Notes: generated by a model not told the origin, from the sequence alone. 64,000 bases of DNA from Lingula anatina (GCA_051362555.1 CM120644.1:17134534-17198533), one strand, 5' to 3'; positions 27,749-57,675 are shown, counted from the stretch's first letter. Numbers and translations: made by a program.

Positions 27749-27980
27749 AACTAGAAAAGCACTCCGAGAGCGCAGACCTTTTGATTATTAGTGATTATTG
27801 ATAGATTATTGATCCGGATCACCACCATAAATTAATCACTTCTATACGTTAACCCATTTCCGACCAACCCTGAAAATTTCATCAAAATTGGTCCATAACT
27901 TTTTGAGTTATGTTGATGACAAACAAACGAACAAACAGACAGACAGGGGTGAAAACATAACCTCCTTGGCGGAGGTAATT
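27749..27980 (+). mobile_element. Short HINE/pearl-like element (second family)
   Basis: AACTAGAAAAGCACTC start, (ACAA/ACAG)n microsatellite, terminal hairpin ACCTCCTTGGCGGAGGT followed by AAT. Confidence 0.7.
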
Positions 27981-28962
27981 AAGGTTGAACTGTACCTAAG
28001 CAGGGCTAAATATCATGGTTTTATAGATAAAATCAAGAGTAAGTCTTTAAAGAAAAATCCCCAAGCCCCTTTTGTAGTACTTTGTTTAAGTGTTATAATA
28101 TTATTAAAAGCATGTTAATAGCTGTCCATGAAAATTGTGTCTTTGACCAAAAATCCCGATATTACGTCACACGATGAATTTGGAGCTGTGTTTCAAGCAT
28201 AAAGATAAAATTAAGATAAAATCTCCAACATGCAGTCCTACCTTAAGCCATCAAACAGCACTGGAAATGCGGAATGGCCACGTGCATTTTTACAAAACAG
28301 ATATCTCTGAAATTTAATTCATATAAATATGTATGTGGTTGTAGAATCTGAAACGGGCTCTAGTGTCGTTGCCTTTTTAATTGATCATGATGTCCCATAA
28401 AAGTTTGCATGACTGCACGCTCTGGCAAATGCCATTCTTTCTGTGTGCTTTTTACGCGTTCTGTGAGTTCCGTTATTAGATTGGTACAGGACGCACGAAC
28501 GTCATTAAATATCCCCAAACACTTCCGTGTTGCTATTGATCGGCGTGACTTTTGGTAATATATACCTGTCTCTTTTTACACTTATTAAAATGAAAAGTTT
28601 TTCCTCGATGTTAACTTCGTTCTCCGGTGTTAAATGTTGCAACTTTTTAAAATTGGAAAGGCTCTTAACTGTAATGGTGTATTTTCCTTTGAAGTTATAG
28701 CCTAAAGAGTAGTTCAAATAAGGTCTCAGAACATAAAATATATATCTATAAACACAAATTTTTATTTCGTTGCCGGAATAAAAGGATTGGCCTAATAAAA
28801 AATAAAAGCCAGGGGCAACGACCAACAGATTACTTCCCCAAGTGATTTTAACAAGGCAAAGCATATTCATAAACATGGAATAATCTGCCACAAATTCCCA
28901 AAGGTGAGTATTAGAAATTAACCGTTTAAGTAGCCTATAGAACCAGTCTCTTCTTGGTGTAA

Positions 28963-41544: not shown

Positions 41545-44500
41545 ACCACACTGCGCTCTCTGCCACAGTTCCTCTGATCTGATTCCCAGCTAAGTCAATG
41601 TAGCAAGCACCTGGTCTGCCATAGGTACTGTACCGTACTGCCTTGAAAATGTGAAAAAAAGGAGGTTAATAATAATAGTATTACAACTCTAAGGCACTGG
41701 TATACATTTTTACAGGAACATTTTTTTATCAAAGCTCACTTTTACTTGCAGTCCGGGTTTCAGGGTACTGAAGAATCACAACCTGAGTGTCAGGGTACTA
41801 AAAAACCACAGCCTGAGTTTCAGGGTATTAAAAAATCACAGCCTGAGTGTAAGGGTACTAAAAAATTGTAGGCTGAGTGTCAGGGTACTAAAAACTTGTA
41901 GGCTGAGTTTCAAGGTACTTCCCCCAACAACATACATATTCCATCAGTTCTTCAATGTGTGTATACAGCATATGTTGGTTGAAAGGTGGGTACATGCATC
42001 TGGCATTCTTTGAATCTCATGATGGTTGACTTTAATGTGTACTTAAACTTACCTTTTCAATATAGAAAGGGATTCTCTCAATGCTGCTTGGTCGAGCAGA
42101 GAACTTGCTGAAGATACGTGTGCTTTCCACCTGTGAAATAGATCACAGAAAATTGTGTAACATGTGTGTATGTGTGAGGTGTGATTGTGCTAGTGTAGTG
42201 TGTTCATGTCTTTTTGTTAGTGTTCCTGTATGTTCATTTAGGTATAAAACATGCCCTGTCTCATTTTGAGGCACATTTGCCTATTCACATGTGTCGCATA
42301 CGTCCAGGTCTGGCAAATAAACAATATGTTTCTTACAAACTCATGGTTTTGAGTCGTTCTTGAATACAATCACTAATACAATAACTTCTAAACTGAACAC
42401 AGACAAAGAAAGAAATAAAGTTACAGATACAGAATGTATACAAACATGTATGCCTTTACCTGAGGAAATTCCTGAAATCCACCCTGACCCTCCTGGTCAG
42501 CATCAGTAGACCCACCTATTACTATCAGTGGCCTGTAAAACACATGTTATAAATATAATTATATAATATATACTATATATAATATATGCTATATATATAT
42601 ATAATATTTCATTGATTGGTTGATTATTAATAAACACCAGCAATAAAGTTGGTGAAAACGGTGAAATATTGAACATTTATTACAAAATCATCCTTTATCA
42701 AGCCAGTTATGACATCATCATTACCAGATCCTCAGTCAGAATAATCAATTAGGATTGCACTTATAGTAGACTAAGTGAAGCACTTATTTCCTAAACCTTA
42801 TCAGTTAGCAAACTAATCAGTTTGCAAGCAACTGTTTGCACATTGTTGCAAGCAACATTGCTGTTGCTGCAAATCTGCTGCAAGTTTTAAGACTAATATT
42901 TTTGGGAAGTTTGCAAAAAAGTCTTTAGACCTCATCTGCATGGCAAAAGTTCTTGAAAACTTGCAGCAAGTTTATTGCAAATGGACGTAGTACATTTGCT
43001 GCAGTGAACGGAACTATGAAGTAGTCTGCTTTTCAGTTTTGTTTGAGTCATTACTCAGGCCCGTAGCCAGGGGGGGGGGGGGTTCGGGGGGTTCAAAACC
43101 CCCCTTTTGCTGGAAAAAAGGTCCCTTCTGGGTAAAATTTTATATAGTTACATGACAGTTTCATGGTAAAAGGTCCACTTTTTCAGAAAAAGAACCCCCC
43201 TTTTGAAATAGCTGGCTACGGGCCTGTTACTAGTACTGTATTGATAACTCACCAGCCATTTTCATTGGCATTGGACATCCCTGCCAGAGCATGTACCAGT
43301 CCTGGCCCTGAGACAACAAGGCACACAGCAGGCCTAGAAAAAACAAAATGCTGTTATTTACTTAAATTTTAGTCATAGACCCCATTCCCAGACCTAGATC
43401 GATCTAGCAAGATCGTCCCATCTCCCAGGAGATTCTTGCTGAATTACATTTAGCTTAAGCGGCTTAGATGTCTGGCATGCATAGTAAAGCTGCTAAAGGA
43501 TAGTTAATTACCCGCTAACAGCTTCAGTAGGCATGCCAGACATTAGATCCACTTAAGCTGAGTGCAATTTAGCAAGTAACCCCTATTAAAGTGGAGGCTG
43601 GTTGTTCAAATAGTGTTAGTAAGTAAAAATCCTCGGAATCATGAACAATCTTTTTGATTGAGTTTTATAAAAAAGAAAAAAAAAAGACATGATGAAATAC
43701 CATATCTAAGCCATTCTCTCCTATCTTTATATCCCACTAGACTGATATTCAGAGTTGCTTGTAGTAAATGTACAATATAAAATGAATGATGCTCCAAATG
43801 ACTTAAATACTCACTTTCCTGTTAAATACCCTATGCAACCAGCAGCGTAAGATGCCTGAAAAATGATGCATTGACCATGGATATAAAATGAAAGTTTTGC
43901 CATTCAATAACTGAATGCGTTTACAAATATCAATATTTCACATGCACACACAGACACACACAGAAGAAAAAAAAAACAACAACAACAGTTACTGCTCAAG
44001 ACTTATGCACTAAATAAAATATCTTATTTTAAAGTCAAGAGCCAGGAACAAACCAACCACACTATTCTTGGCATCTTTTTAACCATCAAAAGAATACTCA
44101 CAGTAACTTAAATGATCATTAATGACATTTGAAAACACTTTCCCTCACACCCTCACATGTTAAACAGTATATTTCATTGGGAGAATACCTACTGCCTGTT
44201 CATTCCTCATTCCTACGAACTTGATTCCTTCTGCCTGGCATGCTATAGCCACCTCTGTTACTGGAATGCCCACAATCCCAAATATGTACTCCACTCCCTA
44301 GAATAGATAAACCAGAGTTGAATAAATAAATAAATAACAATACTGTGTTATAGTTAGCAATAGGTTATGCAAGCTCATTATAAGTATTTCACGCTCTATT
44401 AATGCAAGGCATATCAAAATAATGAAGTAGTTAAAAAGATCTATAACAATAACCAATGTCAGTTTTAATTTCCATTCAAAATACATGTACCAGTACATGA

Positions 44501-44925
44501 TACAGTGTACCAGTGTAAATAAAAGTCCTGATGTTTTTTAGTTTTTTCTTTTTTCAGTTTTTTTTTTTAATAAAACCTATAGACTACATAAGGACAAACA
44601 TGTTATTGCAGTGAAAACCTGAAAAACGGATGTTAAATTTGGAAGTCGAAAAAATTCACTGTTATCCAATGCGTTTGTGACAGGTCAGTAACTAGGTACA
44701 AACTAAAAGCAAACTCTTGTGAGCTCGAATATAATTCATTAATTGCAATTTATATATAGCGCTCAGTTGCGTTAAATAACCAACTCAAATTCAATATAAG
44801 ATATGGACCTTAGCTCAACATTGAAATCAAATGCTCCCCTTTACTTTTAAATGAGGTTAACTAACCTGAGCCTTCAACGATTGAGCTACGATGCTTGCCC
44901 CGTCTACCATCGCTTCGTCCGCCAT
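34019..44925 (-). CDS. HACL1: 2-hydroxyacyl-CoA lyase 1 (ThDP-dependent, peroxisomal alpha-oxidation), complete, 18 coding exons, 574 aa
   Basis: Exons joined by hand, all GT-AG and phase-consistent: 44925-44866, 44297-44193, 43855-43815, 43333-43253, 42532-42460, 42130-42053, 41641-41547, 41195-41083, 40506-40371, 39707-39602, 39238-39155, 37301-37194, 36598-36545, 36060-35960, 35587-35429, 35135-35028, 34643-34457, 34054-34019 (1725 nt). Motifs: [19 protein letters not shown] (catalytic Glu), [28 protein letters not shown], ThDP motif [11 protein letters not shown]...VVNN, C-terminus [11 protein letters not shown]. Confidence 0.96.
36380..36540. repeat. ~59-bp tandem repeat, ~3 units, abutting a HACL1 donor site
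   Basis: TTGACTTAATTTCTAAGGTG...GCCAGCCTTAATTTCAGTCTATA repeated. Confidence 0.85.
36624..36866. mobile_element. PIF/Harbinger-like MITE (family B)
   Basis: TIR GAGCGCATTCAGAA...TTCTGAATGCGCTC with TAA target duplication; relatives at 7888-8053 and 30969-31040. Confidence 0.85.
36761..36821 (+). mobile_element. 61-bp retroelement 3' fragment (RTE-like end) nested in a MITE
   Basis: Flanked by the 13-bp direct repeat ATGTTTAATACGT (36748-36760, 36822-36834); ends in (ATG)n; core GAGGCCTTTGTCCAACAGTGG. Confidence 0.75.
40878..41067. mobile_element. PIF/Harbinger-like MITE (family A)
   Basis: TIR GGGTCCGTTCCCAATGAAA...TTTCATTGGGAATAGACCT, TAA duplication on both sides. Confidence 0.8.
41755..41920. 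repeat. 30-bp minisatellite, ~5.5 units
   Basis: CAGGGTACTAAAAAATCACAGCCTGAGTGT-like unit starting at 41761, 41791, 41821, 41851, 41881. Confidence 0.9.
43056..43226. mobile_element. hAT-like MITE with 5-bp TSD
   Basis: TIR CAGGCCCGTAGCCAG...CTGGCTACGGGCCTG with TTACT duplicated on both sides; copies at 32027-32197, ~33330-33435 and ~57643-57945. Confidence 0.85.
43378..43590. mobile_element. Palindromic MITE (same subfamily), right end missing
   Basis: GACCCCATTCCCAGA start; inverted arms around TAATTA. Confidence 0.65.
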
Positions 44926-45010
44926 TTTGTCTGGTCACATGATCAGGCAGTCTCCTCTCCCTGGAGGTCTGATCCTGCTTCGTTGTGTAAACATTAGTTG
45001 CATTTCGCGC
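44915..45010 (-). promoter_or_regulatory. HACL1 core promoter region (possibly bidirectional)
   Basis: CpG-rich; YY1 motif AAAATGGCGG overlapping the start ATG (44925); E-box GTCACATGAT at 44934-44943. Confidence 0.55.
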
Positions 45011-45299
45011 GATTTTATATATTTTTCTAAAAGCTTCATTAACGGCCTTTCTGCTCGCAATATAGACTTTATTTTATATAAGTTATGTCGTCCCTTTGTG
45101 AGTGAATTTTAGCAGATTATTAAATTTCTTAATTGCTATAAATGAAAGTGGATGCAAATATAATTAAAAAATATATATCTGTCTGGCCAGATGTTTTGCA
45201 CTAATTTGTTTGTCTGATGAGTAATTAGGTAAAGAATATGCATGAGCTTTGAAGTGATCAAATTTGTGACGGTAATTATTCATTAAAGCTGTGTATTGA

Positions 45300-45430
45300 A
45301 AGTCCGAAGGTTCATTGGTCCGAATATTCACTATAGAACCTTCGGACAAATGAACCCTTGATTAAAAAATTGATGAAAGTGTTACCACTTTTCGGACCAA
45401 TGAGCCTTCGGACTATCGAGACGCCCCCTA
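45300..45430. mobile_element. Small palindromic repeat (MITE-like)
   Basis: GTCCGAAGGTTCATTGGTCCGAA ... TTCGGACCAATGAGCCTTCGGAC inverted units. Confidence 0.6.
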
Positions 45431-45449
45431 TTGATAAATGCACAGATCA

Positions 45450-48400
45450 CAGGTAAGTCATGAGATTGAGATGATAAGTGATATGTTTGCATATATCAGA
45501 GTTAAGTACCTGTAGGTATAAATATCATGGTAGTAAAAAAGCCATTTAAATTATTTGCTCTTGAGGGTGTAGTTGAAAAGGTGTGTGGAGACAATATATC
45601 AGTTAAGGTTCTCAGGCAGAAGAATTAAGGTATGTTTTAAATAATTTTGTAATATGTAGGCAATTGTGTAGAAAGCTAAGATGACGGAGTAATGTTTGAG
45701 GTGTAATAGGGTGAATCACCGTGCAACTGATTTCTACATGTATTATGGAAACATGTTTCATTTGAGTGTTTGGCATGGTTGCTTTTCAGTGATATTCTGA
45801 CATCAAAACCTTTGGTCTGTGACAGTATTTTAATGCAAGTTTAATTTGTTGTATGTAATGAAGAAATATAAAGGAGGATATATTTTGTGTACGTGATTTG
45901 TGAATGATGAAATTAATTGTTTACTTAATTTTAAAATGGTTATTTTAAAGGTATGGAAAGCCAAAACATGTATGAGATCTTGTTGGATGAAGGAAATGAT
46001 TGGGTGGAGACCCCACACAAAACTTAATCATGAAGAGTCAGTCAAAATGTTGGAATTTAAGGGCACTAAACCTGCTGATTCATTTATTTTGAAATATTTA
46101 TCTCAGATATGGAAAGAGGAGAGACTATCAGAATTCGCTAGAGAGGTTACGATTGGTTGTTAGAAGAAAGTAAGGTTGACGTAAAATTTAAATATAACAA
46201 AAGAAAGTGTGAAGTTTACACTTGGCGAGAAAATGTTTTGCTGTTATCGCACAAAAGAAATACCTCTGTGGCAGTATTTTTTTGATATTTGCAGATGTGA
46301 CGTTTTTTTTATTCAAAATCAAGAGAAATGTTAATTGAAAACTTAGAGAAAATAGTATAAACAGAAAACAATGTCTAAATTTACTATATTTTATGAGAAA
46401 CAAGTACTATTTACAGTGAATTTTTTTATCACAGAAAGTTATTTTCTTAAACTGTTTATAATAATGATAATAATATTTATTGAGCACTAAAATGCATACA
46501 TATTACATTTTACAGGCTCTCTACACTAGTCATAACAACTTAGCAATAATTTTACAAATCTATACAAATACTTATTGAATGATTACTGGGAAGCAGCACA
46601 GAATAAAACGACTATTAATTTGCTATTGGTGGGTGTGTCGTTTTTTCAAACTTTCAGTTATATGTAGATATATTGTTCTCAAACACGATTCACTTTTTGG
46701 ACTGAGCAGCCACTGAATTTTTTCATGATCTGTTTTCTGCTCAGGAGGTATCATTTATGTAAATTTCTTGTATTATTTAGGGAATAGGGATAGTATTCGG
46801 TTATGGCATAGCTCTTTAATGGTCAATTTTTGGTGTAATTTTTTTGTTAAATGTTCATTTTAGTTGGAAGGGTAGGAGTTGTATTAGTTCAAATGATAGT
46901 TTTTTGTTTGCGAGTGAAGTCTCTTCATAGTTATGTGTGGAGGTTAAAACCCATGGTTTGGGGTGGAGGAGACAAAGGAGAGGAGGCTATATTTGAAAGG
47001 TGAGTTAATATATATTTTGAGTTTTCAGAGTGAAGGGAAATAAGAGCATTGAGTGGAATGGTTTGTATTTTGGCTGTAATAAATATAAATAGTAATGAAG
47101 ATTTATATGATAGTTTAATTTTGTGAAGGTACTGTTTTTTATTATTATCAATCAATCAATTAATCAATCAATGATGTAACAATCTGTATTAAAGTTAATG
47201 AAAAGTAAGTGGAAAATTGTCTGATGTTTGGGGTTTATAGAGGTTCATAAAATGTATATTTGAAATGATTTATGTAATGATAGAAGTGGGAGGAATGTAT
47301 TGTAAAAGAAATTAATGAGCATGTTTGGCAATGCTAGAATATTGTTTTTATTACTTCTGTCAGGGAGGTTATTTTTATACATATCTTTGTTTGTGTTTTT
47401 CTCTGTTATAAAGATAAATAGAAAAAATTGTGGATTGTTTTTGATAAAATTTTCTGAAACTGTAAGAAGTGGGCTAAGGAACAGAGGATTAGTTTTTGGT
47501 GGAGTTCTGGATCAATAATCATGTAATTATTAATAATAAAAAAAATTGTTGTCTTGGCTGAGGTCTGCGCTCTTAGAGTACTTTTGTAGTCTTATTGTTG
47601 TTTTGATATTTTTTGCAGTGATGGCAGGTAGATTTATATGATGTAGGAAATAATATGGAATTAGTAATGGGAGCAGGGTCAGTATAGTGATTAATTAATC
47701 ACATGGTATTATTTTTCAGAGTAAACAAATGGTGATTTTTAATAGGGAAAATTTACATACACATTTTTTTTAGTATGGGAAATGTGCTTTTGGTTGTTGA
47801 TAGAGTAATGGAGTGGCATTTAGTGTAATTTATGTAAAGTTAATTGAATAATTTATTGGATTTTTGATTATGAATAAATATTATTTTTGTAGTAGAAATA
47901 GAAGTCAATTTGAACTGACAGAGTATTTTTGTTATAATTATAACATTTATTTGTGGAGATGAGTGTTTGGTATATAGACATGTTGTTTGTAATTTTTTTA
48001 TTTATATATTTTTGTTTAATTTCTGGTTTCTTAGGAATGATTATCATTGCATGTAGAGGAAAAAGGATTGGTTAAATTACAAATTTGTTTAATTATTTGG
48101 TGAGTATTTTTCTGTATTGGAAATGTAGGAATTTTTCATAATGGCAGATTAAGCTGCATAGATAATATTTATTTGTCTAGTGTATATTTTGTGGTATATG
48201 TATATGCTTATGTAATATTTTCTTAGTTAATGGATTTTTCGTACAGATGTGATTTTATGTTTAAGTAAGTATAAATGTATTTATAATTTTATTGTATGTT
48301 TACAGGCACCTTTGGGAAATTCAAAAGGTTATAAGTTTCAAGGAAATGGGAGAAGATAGACCTATGACTTTTTGCATTATAATAATTTTTTTTGTGAGGT

Positions 48401-49800
48401 AAGAGATATTTTGTTGGTTTCATTAATTACATTACATTTGAAGACAAATGTTCATATTTATTATATGGATTGTCAATGAGTGGAATAAATATGTAGTATA
48501 TTGCTTTTATAATCTAATTGTTAACACTTATGTGACAAATGATGTGATGTTTTGATCTCTTTATATTAATACTATCAGCGGGCGATGTCGATGAGCCAGA
48601 AACAACAGAAATACCGTCCAGTTCCAAAATCAGAATAGTTGCTTTATTGAATTTCACTTAGATTTTTATTACAGATTACTAGTCAAAATAACATTGTTTC
48701 ATGTTTATTTCTTTGACTTTCCACTGAGAAACTCTGGAAGATAACTTTCACACACACCTAATGCATGCCAGCACATCTTCAATTTTTGACTTCATTCAAG
48801 TATGTGTGAATAGAATACCTCCACAGTCCCTCAGCTTTACACCTAAATAACCTTATCATAATACTTATATTTTTGTTTTAGGCAATTGTGACAAAAGGAA
48901 TTTGGAAGATTGGATATAAAAACTTTTTCTGTGTCAAGATGGATATAACATTTTTTTATGTTGTCAACTTGAATATTATGTTCTAAAGTATGAAAAAGGT
49001 ATTTTAATGAAACTTTTAAAGCTAATTTTTTGTGAACTTCTTTAAATGCGTTGCGTTATTTGATGATGATGATGATTTTGCTATAAATAATTTTGGTAAG
49101 ATGTGAGTAAAATGTAATGTTGTATATAATGTTTAGAGTATAATATAAAATTAGTTTGTAAAGTAGTTTGTATTATTGAATCTATATTAATTGCTCTTAG
49201 GATTAGAAAAATATGAAAATTGGAAATATATTTTGATTATGTACTTTTAATGAAGTGGGTATTTGTGCAATCATAAATGATAGTTTACATCATAGAGAAC
49301 ATTGTTCAAGCATTGTTTTGGAAAGTGAATAGTTGTTTGCAAAGAAAATTGATGTTAAAAATTTTGAACTACAAGATGACAAGTTGATATGATTATATTA
49401 AAAGGAAGCCGATTTATAAAATGATTACTAGGTGTTGTTTATCTTTTGTTATGGGTTATGTTTCATTTGTATTAAGCAGAAGAAAGAAGTTATATGTATT
49501 TTAAAATATTTTCTTTGTAATATGAAATTTGTTTTGTGATGTACTGAAATTTAGACAATGAAATTATTTAAAAATTTGAATTATAGTGTATTTTAAAGAG
49601 AAAGTCTGGAGAAATAGTTACATTGAGTTACATAATTATTTCACAATGGCATATTTTTATGTTGAATACATTTTATATATGTTTAATTAAATACAAGGTT
49701 GCAATACGATTGTTAGGACAAGATTATTTATTGAACTGAAATTATAATAAATATTTTACTTTGAAATTGCATACATTTGGCTTGTTTTTTTAATGTTTAT
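45450..49800 (+). other. Cytosine-depleted block, putative spliced + strand transcription unit divergent from HACL1
   Basis: Many 60-nt lines have 0-3 C against 9-16 G (e.g. 47761-47880, 49081-49140). AG/GT-bounded purine-rich segments at 46107-46169, 46931-46999, 48306-48398 and 48882-48998; AATAAA at 49746-49751. Confidence 0.45.
47350..47590 (-). mobile_element. Decayed inverted copy of the 27749-27980 element
   Basis: Aligns by eye to the reverse complement of 27749-27980 (ATTACtTCtGtCAGGGAGGTTAT ... GGATCAATAATC ... GGTCTGCGCTCTtaGAGTaCTTTTgTAGT). Confidence 0.75.
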
Positions 49801-50229
49801 AGTAACATTCAGTGTATCATTGTTGACTCATACCCAGCATTTAAAGTTTCACCTCAAGTGCGTTCTTATAATTTAAGGTATATTTCGTCAAAAAATAATA
49901 TTAATAATATGATATATCGAGTTTAGAATATTTTAGATTTTACTCAAAAGTAGCATTATACATTTTTTATTTGATGCTACTGTAATAATAGGTTGCAAAA
50001 AGCAGAAAGTTATTGAAAACATTTTAATTTTGACAAAAAACTATACAATTCTGAGCAAAGATAATCAAAATGCTCACATAATTACATGGCTTTAAATCAG
50101 TATTATTCTGTGTGATTTTGCACGGCCACTGTTGTGAAAAAGCAGGTTAATTTTTGTAAAAATTGCCCCGATCATGCTGCTTTACAAAATTGACCTACGT
50201 ATTATGAATATTTACCAGTTCTGTAATTT

Positions 50230-50740
50230 TCAAGCCGGTCACAGTAAGATTGCCAGTATATGACTTCCTGACTATTGACTTATCTCTGCCAGTTTTGGAG
50301 ATATAAGGGACTAAATGTTACAATTTTGGAGTTACAATAATGTGCCATAAATTTCCTAAAAAAAATTAATAGAAATAAAGAGTAGGACATTTTGGTTGAA
50401 ATTCTAGAAATGAGAGGTGCTTAGAAGTTCAGATGTTCAAAATTCATGTAATAATGTCACTTTTGACCAGCCCCGCCAAGCCTTATGTTTTATTTTCCAG
50501 AGGTTCAAAATTTATTATCCATTACTGTTAAAAAAAACCTGGAGGTTCTAGTTGAGGTTATATGTGACCTAAATCCAAGAGATGGGGACAGGGGTCCTTG
50601 CGGTCTAGGAGGAGAAGCGGTAACGGTGACTTGTATCCAGCGCCAGTACGCGGAGCCGGTGGAGCCAACGGAGCTGGACGAGACGGGTCGGGACTAAAAC
50701 CACGAGTACCGCCAGCGTACACGCTGGTGGTACTAATAAA
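50230..50740 (+). mobile_element. 5'-truncated copy of the same HINE-like family
   Basis: One satellite unit (50230-50325) plus the same 3' region and terminal hairpin as 54790-55020. Confidence 0.75.
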
Positions 50741-51455
50741 GCAAAAGTTAAATGTCATAGATCAACATGGGGGTTTGGGAAATATCATTAGAAAAATATT
50801 CATTTTTATTAATGTCCACATAAATGGAGAGTTTCATCTCTGACCATTCATAAAGAAGTGAACAATAAGCATGAAATGTGACCATAAGCTAAATGAAACT
50901 CACATATGCAATAACAAAAATTTATTTGATTATTACCAACATTGTCAACTTCAAAATGGGCTAGACTGTTGGCTAGACAGTTTTTGTGCACACAGGAAAA
51001 AAACCCCAACAAAATCCACACTTTACATAACTATTAAAGAAGAAAGAAAAAAAGTTACCAGTAAGCTTAAATTAAAAAGATAAATAAAAGACAAAAAAAA
51101 TCCAATAATAAATATTATAAACAGGTGACGGCTATATGTTCAGGACTACCGTCTATGCATTAAAAAATTCCTAACTTTTGAAAAAACTTTAATAATTAGG
51201 CAACAATATAATCATCACTTAGCACAATTATAGAGATCCACATCAAAATAATTTTACCCCTTTTCCAAAGGCAAGTTTTATCCACTTAAAAAGCAGTTAT
51301 ATTATCATCTCAAATACCTTGTTAATGTAAATTATGACTGAAAAAATGTATTTACAACAACCTCTGTTTTACAGATATAAATGCGCATATCACTTTGCTT
51401 GGCATTACACAAAAACAATTTTTATGTATAAACAGATTATTTTACAGTAAATACA

Positions 51456-54400
51456 TCACTGAAGAGTTGTTTGAAAATGGTTCGTAGTAAGATAAAGCAA
51501 TGCAGTTGTGGCTTCATTGGAAGGAATAAAAGTATTTTGTTCATAACCTTCCAAAGTCACTTCCACTGGCGTTCCGTTGGAAACAGACACAGGCACCGCG
51601 GTGTTAGTTCCTTCATGAGTAATATGAACAATTGTCTGTCCGTCTGCTGTCTGATGAAAGTCCTCCGGCTTGATAAGGATCTGAGTAGACTGGACTGTAG
51701 GGGGCAGTTGTGTCGCTTGGCTATGTATCACTTGCTGGACCTGCTGAGTAACCTCCTGTGTCTGATTATTTAAGGCGTCGTGTGTCCTCTGGTGTCTCAG
51801 CAAGGCGTACTTCGTGTTGAAGCGTTTTGGGCACTGACCGCATTCGAAGGCTCGCGGGTTTTTGTGTATGGTCTCCACGTGTTTTCGTTGGACTGATTTA
51901 GTCTTGAAGGAAGCTCCACATATCTCACAGAGAAATGAACGTATACTAGTGTGCATTGCCATGTGTTCTGCTAAGTGCGCCTGAGAAGAAAAAACAATAA
52001 CATTTTAATTTCATCAAGGAATTCAAGGTCTACTAAAACTCAATATTGTACATTGACCACTCATACAGTCACCTAAAACAACACTGTCCAATGAGCAAAT
52101 TTGTAGATTTTGACTCATCAGACTGAAAGAGACATCTCAATAGGACAACTGACCCTTTAAAGTGCCAAAAAGATGGTCAATAAGAATACAAGCAATATGG
52201 CAGTTTTCAGCAATTTTACAAGTTTTTATGTTATCTTGGAGAGCAATATTCCAGTTTTACGACATAAAAATTGTGTTGATTTTAGATTGAAATGTTAATA
52301 TGGTCTCTTGTCAATGGTTATTATAAACCTACCCTTGAACGGAATGGTTTGTCACAGGTGGAGCATTTAAACCTGAAGATGCGAGATTTCTTTTCCATGT
52401 GGATCACTCGGTGTTGGCGCAGGGCATCCGCTCGCTTGAAAGAAGTCCCACACAAATCGCACAAAAATGGCCTTTGATTGGTATGGACGTCTTTAATATG
52501 TCGCAAATAGTGTTCCTTTTTCTTAGTACTGTAAGCACATTTCTCGCACTGGTACCTCATTATTATTTTGTCCGTGCCGTTTATGATGTCCGCGTGACAG
52601 GACAGATGGCGCTTAAACTGCATAATACTATGGGACGAGTACCCACAATCCTCTGTTGGACACAGAAATCTGTTGACCTTCTTCTTTCCCTCGTCATGCT
52701 CTTTATGCTTGTACTTGATATGGCGTTCTAATAATACAGGGTTGTCTGTCCTATACTTGCATTTAGCATTAGGGCAGCTTTTGCATTCTTTGCTGTGGGT
52801 GTTTATCTCGTGCTTTTTGAGGACACTGAGGCGTATTGTTTTGAAAGTACATTTTGTGCATGCATACAGCTTCTTGTAGACTTTATGGCAAGTCATGTGC
52901 TTGTCGAATTGAGCTTTCCTTTTAGTTTTAAATGAACACATTTTACACCAAAATTTGAAGGGTAAAGTATCCTCATACTCTTTGTTTTTTTCACCTGAAA
53001 AAATGTATTTGAAAAGTAATATGCACAAATGTTTATTAAATCAGGTTACTTTTGTAAATACTGAATAAATAATAGTTCAGACAACATACTTAAAATTTAA
53101 TAACCAAAGGAAAACAAAACTTAAGCATCTGCCTCATTTTTGACGTTTAAAATAAAACTTAAATTTTTCAATATTAAAACTAGAGGATCAGAGAGGCGAT
53201 ACCGCCTCCGGATATTGTACCACCAGCTGGAGTAAGCCCATTCGTATGGACCCCCCACCCAAAAAAAGGGACTCCACCACCAGTCTTGTGCTTGACAAGC
53301 TCTATAAAATGCAATCAACAAGAATTCTCAAAATATGCAAAAAAAAAAAAAAAAAAAACTAAATATGGTACAATCAAAGTTCAGTTCATCGTAAAAAGTA
53401 GGTCAAGGGTCACAGTAAATTGCCTCTAATGACTTTCTATTCCAGGTCAATAGTAACTATGGACCTATCTCTGCCAGTTTTGGAGAGAAAACTTTCAAAA
53501 GGGAACAAAATTTGCAAAGTTCAATTCATGGTTAAAAGTAGGTCAAAGGTCAATTTCAAGGTCACATTTAGATTGCCAGTATATGACTTTCTACTCAAGT
53601 TCAATAGTAACCATGGACCTATCTCTGCCAGTTTTGGAGATAAAAGGGAACAAAATTTGCAAAGTTCAATTCATGGTTAAAAGTAGGTCAAAGGTCAATT
53701 TAAGGGTCACAGTAAATTGCCTCTAATGACTTTCTATTCAAATTCAATAGTAACTATGGGTGTATCTCTGCCAGTTTTGAAAATAAAAGCATAAAAAAAA
53801 TTGCAAAGTTCAGTTTATGGTTAAAAGTAGGTCAAAGGTCAATTTTAAGGTCACAGTAAATTGCCTCGTATGACTTTCTATTCAAATTCAATAGTAACTA
53901 TGGGCGTATCTCTGCCAGTTATGAAAATAAAAGCATTAAAAAGTTGCAAAGTTCAGTTTATGGTGTAAAGTAGGTCAAAGGTCAATTTCAATTTAGATTG
54001 CCAGTATATGACTTTCTATTCAAGTTCAATAGTAACTATGGACCTATCTCTGCCAGTTTTGGAGATAAAAAGGAACCAAAATTTGCAAAGTTCAATTCAT
54101 GGTGAAAAGTAGGCCAAAGGTCAATTTCAAGGTCACATTTAAATTGCCAGTATGTGACTTCCTATTCAACTTTAATAGTAACTATAGACCTATCTCTGCC
54201 AGTTTTGGAGATATAAGGGACTAAATGTTATAATTTTCACAACCACAATGTACTTTTTGATACAGCATAACTCAAAAAATGTATGGAATACGAAAAAACG
54301 GACACCATCTGCAGTGTTAGGCTTTACATGCTCTACAAAATGCAAAAAAGAACGGGTCTCTAGCATTAATGGTTCCCGAATTATAGACAGTTTTCAGTTT

Positions 54401-57400
54401 CGGTATCTTATGGTTGCTACTCCCGTGAAAATGCACTGATTGACCCCGAATTCACGGAGATGAAAGATGACCCAAAGGGGAACACTTTCCAATAATATTA
54501 TTGGTTAAGTCTGTGTAGTGTCTGAATAACAGCAAAAATAATTTTTTTTTTCGTAAAAAAATTCGTTTTTTTGAAAATTTTGGCCCATTTGACCTTGAAA
54601 CAAAGGTCAAAGGTCAAATCCAAGGGCATATTTGAAATCTCCACATATGACTTTCGGTCAGTCGTCTGTAGAAATTTTTCCCATAATTCCTTCCGTAGGG
54701 TAGATAATTGGCATTGAATTTTCAAAAATTTTGACAAGGGTGCAATTCAACGAGTGTCACGCCAAGGTCAATGCACCGACTGAGACAAAAAAACTTGGGG
54801 GTTCAAGTTGAGGTTATATGTGACCTAAATCCAAGAGATGGAGACAGGGGTCCTTGCGGTCTAGGAGGAGAAGCGGTAACGGTGACTTGTATCCGGCGCC
54901 AGTACGCGGAGCCGGCGGAGCCAACGGAGCCAACGGAGCCGCAGGAGCCGGCGGAGCCGGACGAGACGGGTCGGGACTAAAACCATGAGTACCGCCAGCG
55001 TACACGCTGGTGGTACTAATAAAGTCCAAAATCCAATATAAAATCCTTAAAATTAAAAATATTTACATTTTACTGCATCTCTCTTTGACCGCCTGTGTTG
55101 TGTGGTGCCCTCCTCTGCATCACTGAGACAGGAGTCATCCGGGTCTTTGTTCTCCGTGTTATCATTGCTGAAATCTGGCTCTTCTTCTTCTCCTTCTTCA
55201 TCATCATCATCATTGGAACTGTCTTCTGGCTTCACATCTCCTTCTTGATTGATATCCTCATCCCGTATATCAGAATTTGAAACAATAACTTTTGTTTCGT
55301 CAATGGTTCCATCGCCTTCCCACATGTCGCCATCATGTTCTATGATAACAGAAGGATTCGGTTCTTTCTTAGCACTGGTGATTTTCAAAGGTGTTTTAGT
55401 TTTTCTCCTACGTACTGGGGTTTTCACAACCAGATCTTCACTGTCATCATGGTCGGAGCTATTAAAATCATCAAAAAATTCAATGGCATCTTCTCTTGTT
55501 GTTGGTTTCACCTGACGTCCAGACCGCGTCACGGTGACAGGTTTCAGCAGTTCACACATCACTCCTCGGTCATTTTTCCCTTTATCATGCCCATTGACCA
55601 ATCTTTGCAGGTCTCGACGGATTGATACCAAAGAGTCGAGGTCTGTAGAGATGGTGTACTTGTCATCAGTTTCATCCATTTGGAAATCACGAGTCTCTTG
55701 CAAGTGTTTGAGATGGACATCTATGGAGCCGGGAATCAGGGGCTGCAGCTGCTTGGAGATAGTGGCTGTGACACTTTCAAATATCTGGAACAAAAAGAAA
55801 TTATAACATAGCTGACTTTACGTCCAAAATTCACATCTTTATAAGCAGACAAATTTTTCATCATAATACTAAATATGTGGGGTATAATTTCAGGTGACCA
55901 GTCTGACCAGGTCATTTACCTAACCAAGTGAAAGGTCTCAGGTTAAGACTTCAACGTCGGTCAGTTGCTAATGCAAGTTCCGGAATCCAGTATCCGAGTC
56001 ATTCATGTTTTCAGTACTTAACCAGTACCATTCAGACAATGAATGAAAATCTACTAGAAAATCAGTTAAGTATTTTATCACCTGTGTTTGGCTGGAACCA
56101 CCTTACCTTGGTCTCTTTCTTGGCACTGCCCAGTTTCCACAAATGCTCAAATGTATCCTGGAAATCAACAAGTTGTCCACCATAATTCTGTAACTCATCT
56201 TGGACTGAGACACTTGGCTTCACGTCTCTGTCGATGGGCACTTTTTTAGAGACCTGCCGTGCCACTTCAGGAGCTTCCTTCAAATTTTGCTGTGACTTTT
56301 TCTGTTGCTGGTTCGGGTTGGGAGGGGGTTGTAGTTTCTGAATCCCAGGTGCGCTTTTCTGATCCACTTCCTGTTCCTGTTGTGGTTTACTTTGCAGCTC
56401 TTGCTTTGGTGGCGGAGACAGACGCTGAGACAACTTCTGGACCTCGTCACGCGGCAGCACAGACACGTGGATTTGTTGGCCATTTGGCAGAGTCAACACC
56501 TGTTCTTCCATGCTTTCCGTTGCTGAGGCAACGCCCATTTCTACAGCGCTGGTTATATCACCTATGGTGAGACTCCCATGTTGGCCACCCAAGAAGCTCT
56601 CAGGGCCTTTGTTAACCCCTGTTTGACTGGTATCTCCCATATTGTACACCACACCCCCTGAATTTGCATAAAAAGAAGTGGTGTTGATCGAATTTCCACT
56701 TCCAGTTTGATTAATCGGGTTGACAGCAGTGACTGCCGGCGGTGGACTTTGTCCGAGAAGTGACCGCCCTGGGACGTATATAGTGACCCCTTGCTGCTCA
56801 TAACACATCACACTCTGACCCATGGCAAGAGGGGAGGCACTGGTCACCACACTCATAGGGAGAGACTGAAGGGTTGAGGTGGTCTCTACAGAGGGCTGAC
56901 CGGTACTCATTTGTTGGTCCATTCCTTGAATGGACCCAACTGGGCACGATGTATTTAGTATCGAGACTTGATCTAATTGGGAGGTGATCGACGGCTGCTG
57001 AACAAGTTCACTAGTTCCTGCTAAAGTTGTCATATTCATTTGATTGACAGCAGAATACTGTTGTTGAGACTGCTGCTGGGCATCTGCTGTAAGTTGTTGT
57101 AGGTGCTGTATTTGCTGCTGCTGCTGTTCAAGCTGAGATTGTTGTAAATGCTGCTGGATCTGTTGCTGTTGTTGCTGCTGAGCTCCCGTTGTCAGTTGCT
57201 GAAAATGTTGCACTTGCTGTTGCTGATTTTGCTGTGTCCCTGTTGTCAGCTGCTGTAACATATCTGGGGTGATGACAATTTGATCTTGCTGCTCTCCCTG
57301 CTGCTGCTGCTGCTGAATATTTACATGAGTTGTTGACTGATGTTGAGAAATGTGGTCTCCCTGCATACTGTGTTGTCCTATGCCTGATGAGGCATCAATT

Positions 57401-57544
57401 TCATTGACCTTTAACCCTGAGTTCATGTCACCGGCTTTTAACCCTGACGTCAAACTGCTGATGCCTGGTAATTCTGTGGTGTGCTGTATTGGAGAGGCTG
57501 AACCTGTGGGTGCCAATAAACTGTTGGTTTGGATGTGGGGCTCC
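51456..57544 (-). CDS. C2H2 zinc-finger protein (~1070-1110 aa): Q-rich N-terminus, acidic middle, 9 C2H2 fingers, Q/T-rich tail; probable transcription factor
   Basis: Phase-consistent GT-AG exons 57544-56107, 55784-55067, 52994-52333, 51980-51456 match ORFs 56062..57570, 55053..55793, 52321..53028, 51456..51962. Fingers include CDLCGTSFKRADALRQHRVIH, CSTCDKPFRSR|AHLAEHMAMH (split by an intron) and CGQCPKRFNTKYALLRHQRTH. Start codon uncertain; the first in-frame ATG in the large exon is at 57426 (1074 aa). Confidence 0.92.
53178..55020 (+). mobile_element. Helentron-associated (HINE/DINE-1/pearl-like) non-autonomous element with internal satellite array, in a zinc-finger gene intron
   Basis: Starts AACTAGA, contains ~6 x 144-bp tandem units and a GC-rich 9-bp microrepeat, and ends with the hairpin AGTACCGCCAGCGT-AC-ACGCTGGTGGTACT followed by AAT. 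Its 3' part is nearly identical to 50535-50740. Confidence 0.7.
53375..54230. repeat. ~144-bp tandem array, about 6 units
   Basis: GGACCTATCTCTGCCAGTTTTGG-like motif at ~53461, 53615, 53759, 53902, 54040 and 54185. Confidence 0.92.
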
Positions 57545-57675
57545 CTAAGAACAAGAATGAAATAAAACATTTAGGCAAATAATTACAAAAGAAGTATTAT
57601 TTCCCAATATGACTATCATACTGACTCTAAGATGTTCTACATCAGGTCCATTGCAAGCAATTTCAAAAGGGAGTT

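Follow-up and report, generated by a model that had tools for sequence, protein, structure and literature searches.

A probably spliced and non-coding transcription unit in Lingula anatina that has lost most cytosines from its RNA-like strand

Over a length of 4.7 kb, a transcription unit lying head-to-head with the gene HACL1 in the brachiopod Lingula anatina has lost some three in four cytosines from its RNA-like strand. The unit lies within a window of 64,000 nucleotides (GCA_051362555.1, CM120644.1:17134534-17198533), which is the whole stretch of DNA analyzed here and to which all positions refer. It has definable borders and a definite strand, it lost its cytosines in place and in an age-dependent manner, and intron-less copies of it are present in DNA. 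The unit is likely a spliced long non-coding RNA (lncRNA) gene active in the germline, and we consider deamination associated with its transcription the probable cause of the cytosine loss.

Between positions 45450 and 49800, the + strand consists of 33.1% A, 8.6% C, 19.3% G and 39.0% T, compared with 19.1% C, 17.7% G and 30.6% T in the window outside this block. The GC skew of the block is +0.38 (z ~13), while 502 overlapping windows of the same length elsewhere range from -0.13 to +0.07. As G/(G+A) in the block is ordinary (0.33-0.43), the skew reflects loss of C and not gain of G. In a repeat-free core of 2504 bases, C/T is 0.14, G/A is 0.59 and the skew reaches +0.54; G exceeds C by 342 and T exceeds A by 220, so that roughly two thirds of the missing C is present as T. 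A preliminary description made from the sequence alone had quoted local counts that are exact (0 C and 9 G in 47821-47880; 1 C and 12 G in 49081-49140) and had called the skew far greater than that of neighboring genes, which agrees with the core value of +0.54 against about +0.05 for HACL1 and about +0.04 for the downstream zinc-finger gene on their sense strands. HACL1 is skewed in the same direction as the block and much more weakly (index 1.14 versus 4.2).

A two-rate changepoint fit to C/(C+G) over 43000-52000 placed the start of the block at 45427-45478 and its end at 49600-49834, a range that includes the AATAAA at 49746. The borders match the positions of the promoter and the poly(A) signal, in keeping with the transcription-unit shape that had been attributed to the block. 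Before the young insertion that follows it, the stretch 45100-45290 is already low in C (C/(C+T) 0.19), which puts the probable start of the unit near 45050-45100. The block is not uniform and contains two islands of normal C content, at 46445-46753 and 48567-48858.

Contigs and reads were compared from DNA runs X1 (conspecific), X9 and X19 (both more diverged) and from RNA runs X10 and X13-X16; variants listed for these comparisons are the best-supported 40 of 370 rows for X1 and the best-supported 40 of 382 for X9 and X19. The preliminary description had named raw reads as the check for an assembly artefact, and the independent run X1 supports the C-poor sequence, with six listed contigs (44971-45259, 45445-45979, 46727-47037, 48053-48521, 48833-49487 and 49480-50173) that each differ from the window at 0-10 positions. 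The C deficit is therefore real and not an artefact of assembly. A seventh, short X1 contig of low depth (48053-48333), which over 290 bases carries 21 substitutions as well as 11 gap letters, can be read as a divergent haplotype or as a paralogue with its intron. Orthologous pieces from X9 and X19 are 6.4% and 8.9% diverged and as C-poor as the window, with C found only in the window versus only in the run at 36:36 and 42:47 sites, repeat copies included. At 45432-45900, where C depletion is milder (C/(C+T) 0.22), X9 yielded no contigs and X19 almost none at 82% likeness; this 5' part may be younger or replaced.

Insertions of different ages show that the loss happened in place. The element at 45293-45430, in the 5' part of the unit, which resembles a miniature inverted-repeat transposable element (MITE), has normal C content and very high copy number, with a bin depth of 188,000 versus about 100 for unique DNA and a summed contig depth about 2000 times that of unique DNA. 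The two C-normal islands are absent from X9 and X19 and are therefore young. The intronic repeat at 47340-47590, which belongs to a family that we take to be Helentron-associated and non-autonomous, is present in the X9 orthologue and is therefore older than the C-normal insertions. Compared with a sister copy at 27750-27982, this old repeat has changed at 24 of 37 C but at 15 of 50 G (Fisher p=0.002). The 24 changed C became 14 T, 6 A and 4 G, and C was lost 24 times and gained 6 times, with G lost 15 times and gained 12 times. Over one 31-base stretch, a consensus of 323 loose-end reads from X15 agrees with the sister copy, and the old repeat has lost all 7 C. Measured against the majority of 32 outside copies, 18 of 25 C have changed, compared with 11 of 31 G (p=0.008); these 32 distinct sequences, from 38 metagenome loci and aligned mostly over the first 100-175 bases, were picked because they contain one motif of the sister copy letter for letter, and are biased toward it. 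Both comparisons bear out the proposed loss of C from the non-template strand and show that it occurred in place; together with the C-normal young insertions they show that it depends on age.

Stranded RNA reads from X13 identify the block as a + strand transcription unit, as had been proposed. First-mate-minus reads occur in 18 of 19 bins across 45004-49772, introns included, at 0.07-5.7x outside the MITE bin, while both - strand neighbors give first-mate-plus reads (HACL1 at 0.2x). The + strand RNA starts in bin 45004-45254 and ends at the poly(A) signal in bin 49522-49772, with no reads on that strand in the next bin. The skew is co-extensive with this transcription unit and oriented by its direction. 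The suggestion that the locus is extremely highly transcribed was not borne out, as steady-state levels were low to near zero in each of the RNA runs, which are of unspecified tissue; expression is low and sample-dependent across these five of nine RNA runs. Diverged spliced reads on the opposite strand map to 45906-46063, 46854-46999, 47619-47679 and 48050-48100 (X14, X15 and probably X10), apparently from a processed copy at another site that is transcribed in antisense to the block RNA.

The predicted exon structure (Table 1) is based on X9 contigs at a depth of about 100 that skip four introns or intron pairs, with joints from 46999 to about 47619, 47679 to about 48030, 48098 to 48305 (GT..AG), about 48398 to 48881, and 48097 to 48880. 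Every one of these joints is a splice site in the window, and DNA depth in both X9 and X19 is higher over exons than over introns. The one intron-skipping contig listed with its differences is 11.6% diverged, compared with 6.4% for the orthologous X9 pieces. These contigs are best read as processed copies of the spliced RNA, with X9 taken as a DNA run by guess and with no poly(A) tails or target duplications seen on the copies. Such copies in DNA would mean that the RNA was present in the germline, where retro-copying took place. As 90 letters shown from them contain 6 C and 22 G (counted by eye), the locus was probably already C-poor when the copies arose. In addition, C is scarcer in introns than in exons (C/(C+T) 0.11 versus 0.17), which argues against selection on the mature RNA.

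The unit does not resemble a protein-coding gene or a pseudogene. Its longest stop-free stretch is 88 codons, there was no Pfam match in six read-through frames and no word-search match, and the read-through frame 45900-46331 had no relative among 1.84 billion representative proteins. The 88-codon frame itself (45897-46163), considered as a protein remnant, gave no matches. A decayed reverse transcriptase of a long interspersed nuclear element on the - strand was also rejected, as the motif in question belongs to the short repeat at 47340-47590 and has no Pfam match. Rfam returned nothing in the block except a chance hit (E 5.5). The best candidate for a C/D small nucleolar RNA (snoRNA), at 45678-45730 in a predicted intron, is weak; it has a terminal stem and retained CpGs, lies outside the contig coverage of X9 and X19, and was matched in 11 of 100 shuffles. 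A snoRNA host gene was set aside on these grounds, with no Rfam snoRNA and a C/D candidate within chance, H/ACA snoRNAs not having been scanned for separately. A mitochondrial insert was likewise rejected, with no Pfam or Rfam match, no tRNA and 66-76 stops per frame under translation table 5, in a comparison that did not extend to unassigned mitochondrial DNA.

How the cytosines were lost can be read in part from their context and from differences between lineages. Loss is almost independent of context and does not differ with the base at -2, -1 or +2 (p 0.62, 0.24 and 0.19); at +1, depletion is strongest for CpG and weakest for CpA (p=0.016). Between the window and X9 or X19, C/T differences per C are 1.8-2.1 times the G/A differences per G (about 50 events per class), and T/C differences per T are 0.76-0.85 of the A/G differences per A. 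These rates lean toward faster C loss and are also compatible with weak selection. Among the X1 variants listed for unique block DNA, 4 of 10 fall at a window C, where C makes up 7% of bases (p=0.004). PMC10030826 and 10.1101/2025.03.26.645593 describe the non-template strand as exposed during transcription, with deamination of its C, and according to PMC5786239 skew tracks germline expression and amounts to only about 4% in the most germline-expressed Drosophila genes. At the L. anatina locus, RNA polymerase II would fire divergently from the HACL1 promoter in germ cells, and the displaced non-template strand would be single-stranded often enough for C to deaminate to U without sequence preference. 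Unrepaired U would yield C>T, which makes up about two thirds of the deficit; C>A and C>G could arise where U is excised and an abasic site is left. Because the RNA sequence would be hardly constrained, exons, introns and inserted repeats alike would drift until they hold about 1 C for every 7 T at equilibrium.

Several observations weigh against transcription-associated deamination as the full account. The strength is about ten times the 4% skew given for the most germline-expressed Drosophila genes in PMC5786239, which ordinary transcription alone does not explain. The change counts for X9 and X19, to which repeat copies contribute, do not distinguish a faster C>T rate from selection that acts against T>C, and the balance of C gains and losses in these lineages demonstrates a steady state, not a present net loss. 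Among the listed sites are 13 at which X9 and X19 share a base that the window lacks; here the window has 5 gains of C and 1 loss (p=0.22). When the old-repeat comparison is confined to sites where the sister copy equals the outside majority, the contrast falls to 11 of 17 C versus 9 of 27 G (p=0.063). Outside the search motif, the sister copy is itself changed at 8 of 17 C versus 4 of 25 G. As for the RNA, poly(A) runs X10 and X16 have near-zero sense coverage in the unique parts of the unit, X14 and X15 are patchy at 0-7x with nothing beyond 49066, a splice joint is crossed by one sense-strand RNA read only (X15, 48098-48305), and repeat-dominated RNA counts fail to separate the strands (15:4 versus 11:8, p=0.30).

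The strength of the C loss, far above that of the neighboring genes, would also suit a brachiopod AID/APOBEC-like enzyme recruited to the unit in germ cells and deaminating the non-template strand, which would amount to locus-specific germline hypermutation and which we consider unlikely. PMC5956068 reports that L. anatina LaAIDL1 is an active DNA mutator in E. coli assays, and 10.64898/2026.06.11.731563 proposes off-target AID/APOBEC activity for the excess of C>T on the non-transcribed strand of vertebrate histone genes; the 6 C>A and 4 C>G changes beside 14 C>T in the old repeat fit such an enzyme as well. The strand-specific deaminase put forward in the preliminary description found no counterpart in sequence context, as loss is not enriched at the AID motif WRC (odds ratio 0.255) or at the APOBEC3A/B motif TCW (0.291) compared with about 0.24 overall, although these motifs are of vertebrate type and may not be those of Lingula. 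Antibody hypermutation peaks near the promoter, whereas the depletion here is flat to the poly(A) site with no promoter-near peak, and nothing in the data points to targeting of an enzyme to this locus. According to PMC5956068, LaAIDL transcripts are enriched in digestive tissues. Since the species has an active AID-like mutator, whose motif is not given in the passages of that paper that were consulted, an enzyme keeps a small probability. A more specific version, which we hold to be more doubtful than enzyme recruitment in general, would have an AID/APOBEC-like deaminase of relaxed preference aimed at a germline non-coding gene, possibly one for PIWI-interacting RNA (piRNA), heritably stripping C from it and from its inserts to give a U-rich RNA. 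An undescribed hypermutation system is thus possible but unproven, and our preference is for transcription-associated mutation at unusual strength, a known process that needs fewer assumptions to account for the data.

The divergent promoter and its MYB-like hexamer, the low steady-state RNA, the trapped repeats and the fast divergence would all suit an RNA, whether a piRNA precursor or of another type, that is weakly selected for a U-rich, C-poor composition, with T>C disfavored and C>T favored. The reduced T/C differences per T point the same way, as does the C-poor sense strand of the adjoining zinc-finger 3' untranslated region (UTR; C/(C+T) 0.21). This is also an unlikely explanation, as introns and the intronic transposon remnant are the most depleted parts and selection would have to act at thousands of interchangeable sites. 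Status as a piRNA precursor explains germline transcription without itself needing selection on C.

Asymmetric repair, in which transcription-coupled repair clears C lesions (ultraviolet photoproducts at dipyrimidines, for example) from the template strand and leaves them on the opposite one, would act in the direction seen (PMC10030826), and loss is slightly stronger after a pyrimidine (odds ratio 0.205) than after a purine (0.268). That 5' difference is not significant, as given above, and repair of this kind predicts safer template C, but the G/(G+A) of the + strand does not exceed that of the flanks. The non-template strand has therefore been hit more, and the template has not been spared, so that we regard this account as very improbable. 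Finally, arrival of the block in a C-poor state (as a mitochondrial insert, hyper-edited retroelement or viral DNA) or an assembly artefact, which might be suggested by the sharp borders and the near lack of X9 and X19 contigs at 45432-45900, is largely refuted by the loss of C in place from the inserted old repeat and is further opposed by the matching X1 contigs, the GT-AG introns, the poly(A) signal, the lack of Pfam matches and the number of stops under the invertebrate mitochondrial code, making it the least credible explanation of all.

The identification of HACL1 as the adjoining gene held, as its next exon (44160-44297, - strand) has a Pfam TPP_enzyme_N match and its best PDB matches are 2-hydroxyacyl-CoA lyases. 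The motifs in the putative shared promoter (Table 1) are consensus matches only, and the MYB-like hexamer at 45040 is one that we take to resemble those of A-MYB pachytene piRNA promoters. Downstream of the unit, the zinc-finger gene (51456-57570, - strand) encodes a multi-C2H2 protein with a Q-rich N-terminus that is 98-99% identical to a Lingula anatina protein, and the source label of the latter, "mediator of RNA polymerase II transcription subunit 26", looks wrong. The 3' UTR of this gene (50780-51450, - strand) has a skew of +0.18 on its sense strand. Repeats related to a 144-base tandem array occupy 50170-50776 and 53375-54239; in stranded runs, reads from other copies of these relatives are abundant and strongly one-stranded (450-590x versus 5-7x in X10), with joints stepping back 72-79 bases.

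Table 1 Features in and beside the C-depleted unit, in window coordinates
Feature	Position	Strand	Remarks
HACL1 first coding exon	44864..44928	-	Start codon near 44928; placed head-to-head with the unit; from reading the sequence
Putative shared bidirectional promoter	44930..45100	.	E-box 44936, E2F-like 45003, MYB-like hexamer 45040, TCT-like initiator 45046, TATA-like 45075
C-depleted transcription unit, spliced, lncRNA-like	45050..49800	+	Composition, changepoints, X13 + strand RNA; no protein or RNA family relative
Young high-copy inverted-repeat, MITE-like insertion	45293..45430	.	Self-complementary; normal C (C 31, G 27)
Predicted exon, 5' border uncertain	45951..46999	+	Donor GTGAGT after 46999; joint in X9 DNA contig and X14 reads; extra depth in X19, not in the next intron
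Young insertion, C-normal	46445..46753	.	C 49, G 45; joints 46444-46754, 46426-46753, 46453-46753 in lineages without the insertion
Old non-autonomous DNA-transposon-like repeat, intronic	47340..47590	+	Most C lost in place
Predicted exon	47619..47677	+	X14 loose end behind 46999 fits 47619-47648 (26/30 letters); joint from 47679 in X9 and X14
Predicted exon, 5' border 48028-48035	48028..48099	+	Joints 47679-48049 and 48098-48305 (GT..AG); raised X9 DNA depth
Predicted exon	48306..48398	+	X9 joints 48098-48305, 48358-48880 and 48097-48880; skipped in one processed copy; + strand X15 read across 48098-48305
Young insertion, C-normal	48567..48858	.	C 64, G 39; 7-base target-site duplication; joint 48566-48859, 7 letters fit both sides
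Predicted last exon	48882..49800	+	Acceptor at 48881, joints into 48880; ends after AATAAA 49746; X13 RNA end

In kind, the process at this locus is a known one. Like the transcription-associated mutation bias of human genes and Drosophila introns, the skew is confined to a transcription unit, here one that is probably expressed in the germline (PMC10030826, PMC5786239), and as in human genes it takes the form of an excess of G over C and of T over A on the non-template strand (PMC10030826). Unlike in the most germline-expressed Drosophila genes, the core skew is 54% and not 4% (HACL1 has 5%), and the excess in Drosophila is of C, not G, according to PMC5786239. Excess non-template C>T at particular, highly transcribed loci is also described for tRNA and replication-dependent histone genes (10.1101/2025.03.26.645593, 10.64898/2026.06.11.731563). 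These genes are short, intron-less and conserved, whereas the block is a 4.7-kb multi-exon unit under little constraint and at compositional equilibrium, and it shows no deaminase motif and belongs to an invertebrate. With AID somatic hypermutation and APOBEC3 kataegis the block shares C loss in single-stranded transcribed DNA through C>T, C>A and C>G, but the change here is heritable and not somatic, prefers neither WRC nor TCW, does not fall off away from the promoter and has no demonstrated link to an enzyme.

Pachytene-type piRNA precursors and snoRNA host genes of the 5' terminal oligopyrimidine class are non-coding, spliced, divergently transcribed and poorly conserved, with low steady-state RNA and retrocopies. 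The block resembles both in these traits; it differs from snoRNA host genes in that Rfam gave no snoRNA and the scan one weak C/D candidate. In the literature searched, a comparable loss of C was not found described for piRNA precursors or snoRNA host genes, and titles and abstract openings revealed no account of a locus of this kind, nor of piRNA or lncRNA loci depleted of C in lophotrochozoans. PMC9925758 contains no passage on skew or deamination, and 10.64898/2026.09.25.754379, which concerns repeats and mismatch repair, does not enter the argument. The searches gave no earlier description of a loss of this strength, of its extent over 4.7 kb as far as the poly(A) site or of insertions that date it.

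The block is a natural and dated experiment on transcription-linked mutation in an invertebrate germline, in which insertions of different age record the pace of one-strand C loss, here about ten times as strong as reported for fly genes of high expression. Germline non-coding or piRNA genes of lophotrochozoans could be found from sequence alone if they are marked by blocks like this one. PMC5956068 leaves open the targets of invertebrate AID/APOBEC-like deaminases, and if an AID-like enzyme were responsible for the loss, this unit would be the first endogenous genomic target of such a deaminase. Should the targeted-deaminase explanation prove true, the locus would represent a germline, locus-targeted hypermutation system outside the vertebrates.

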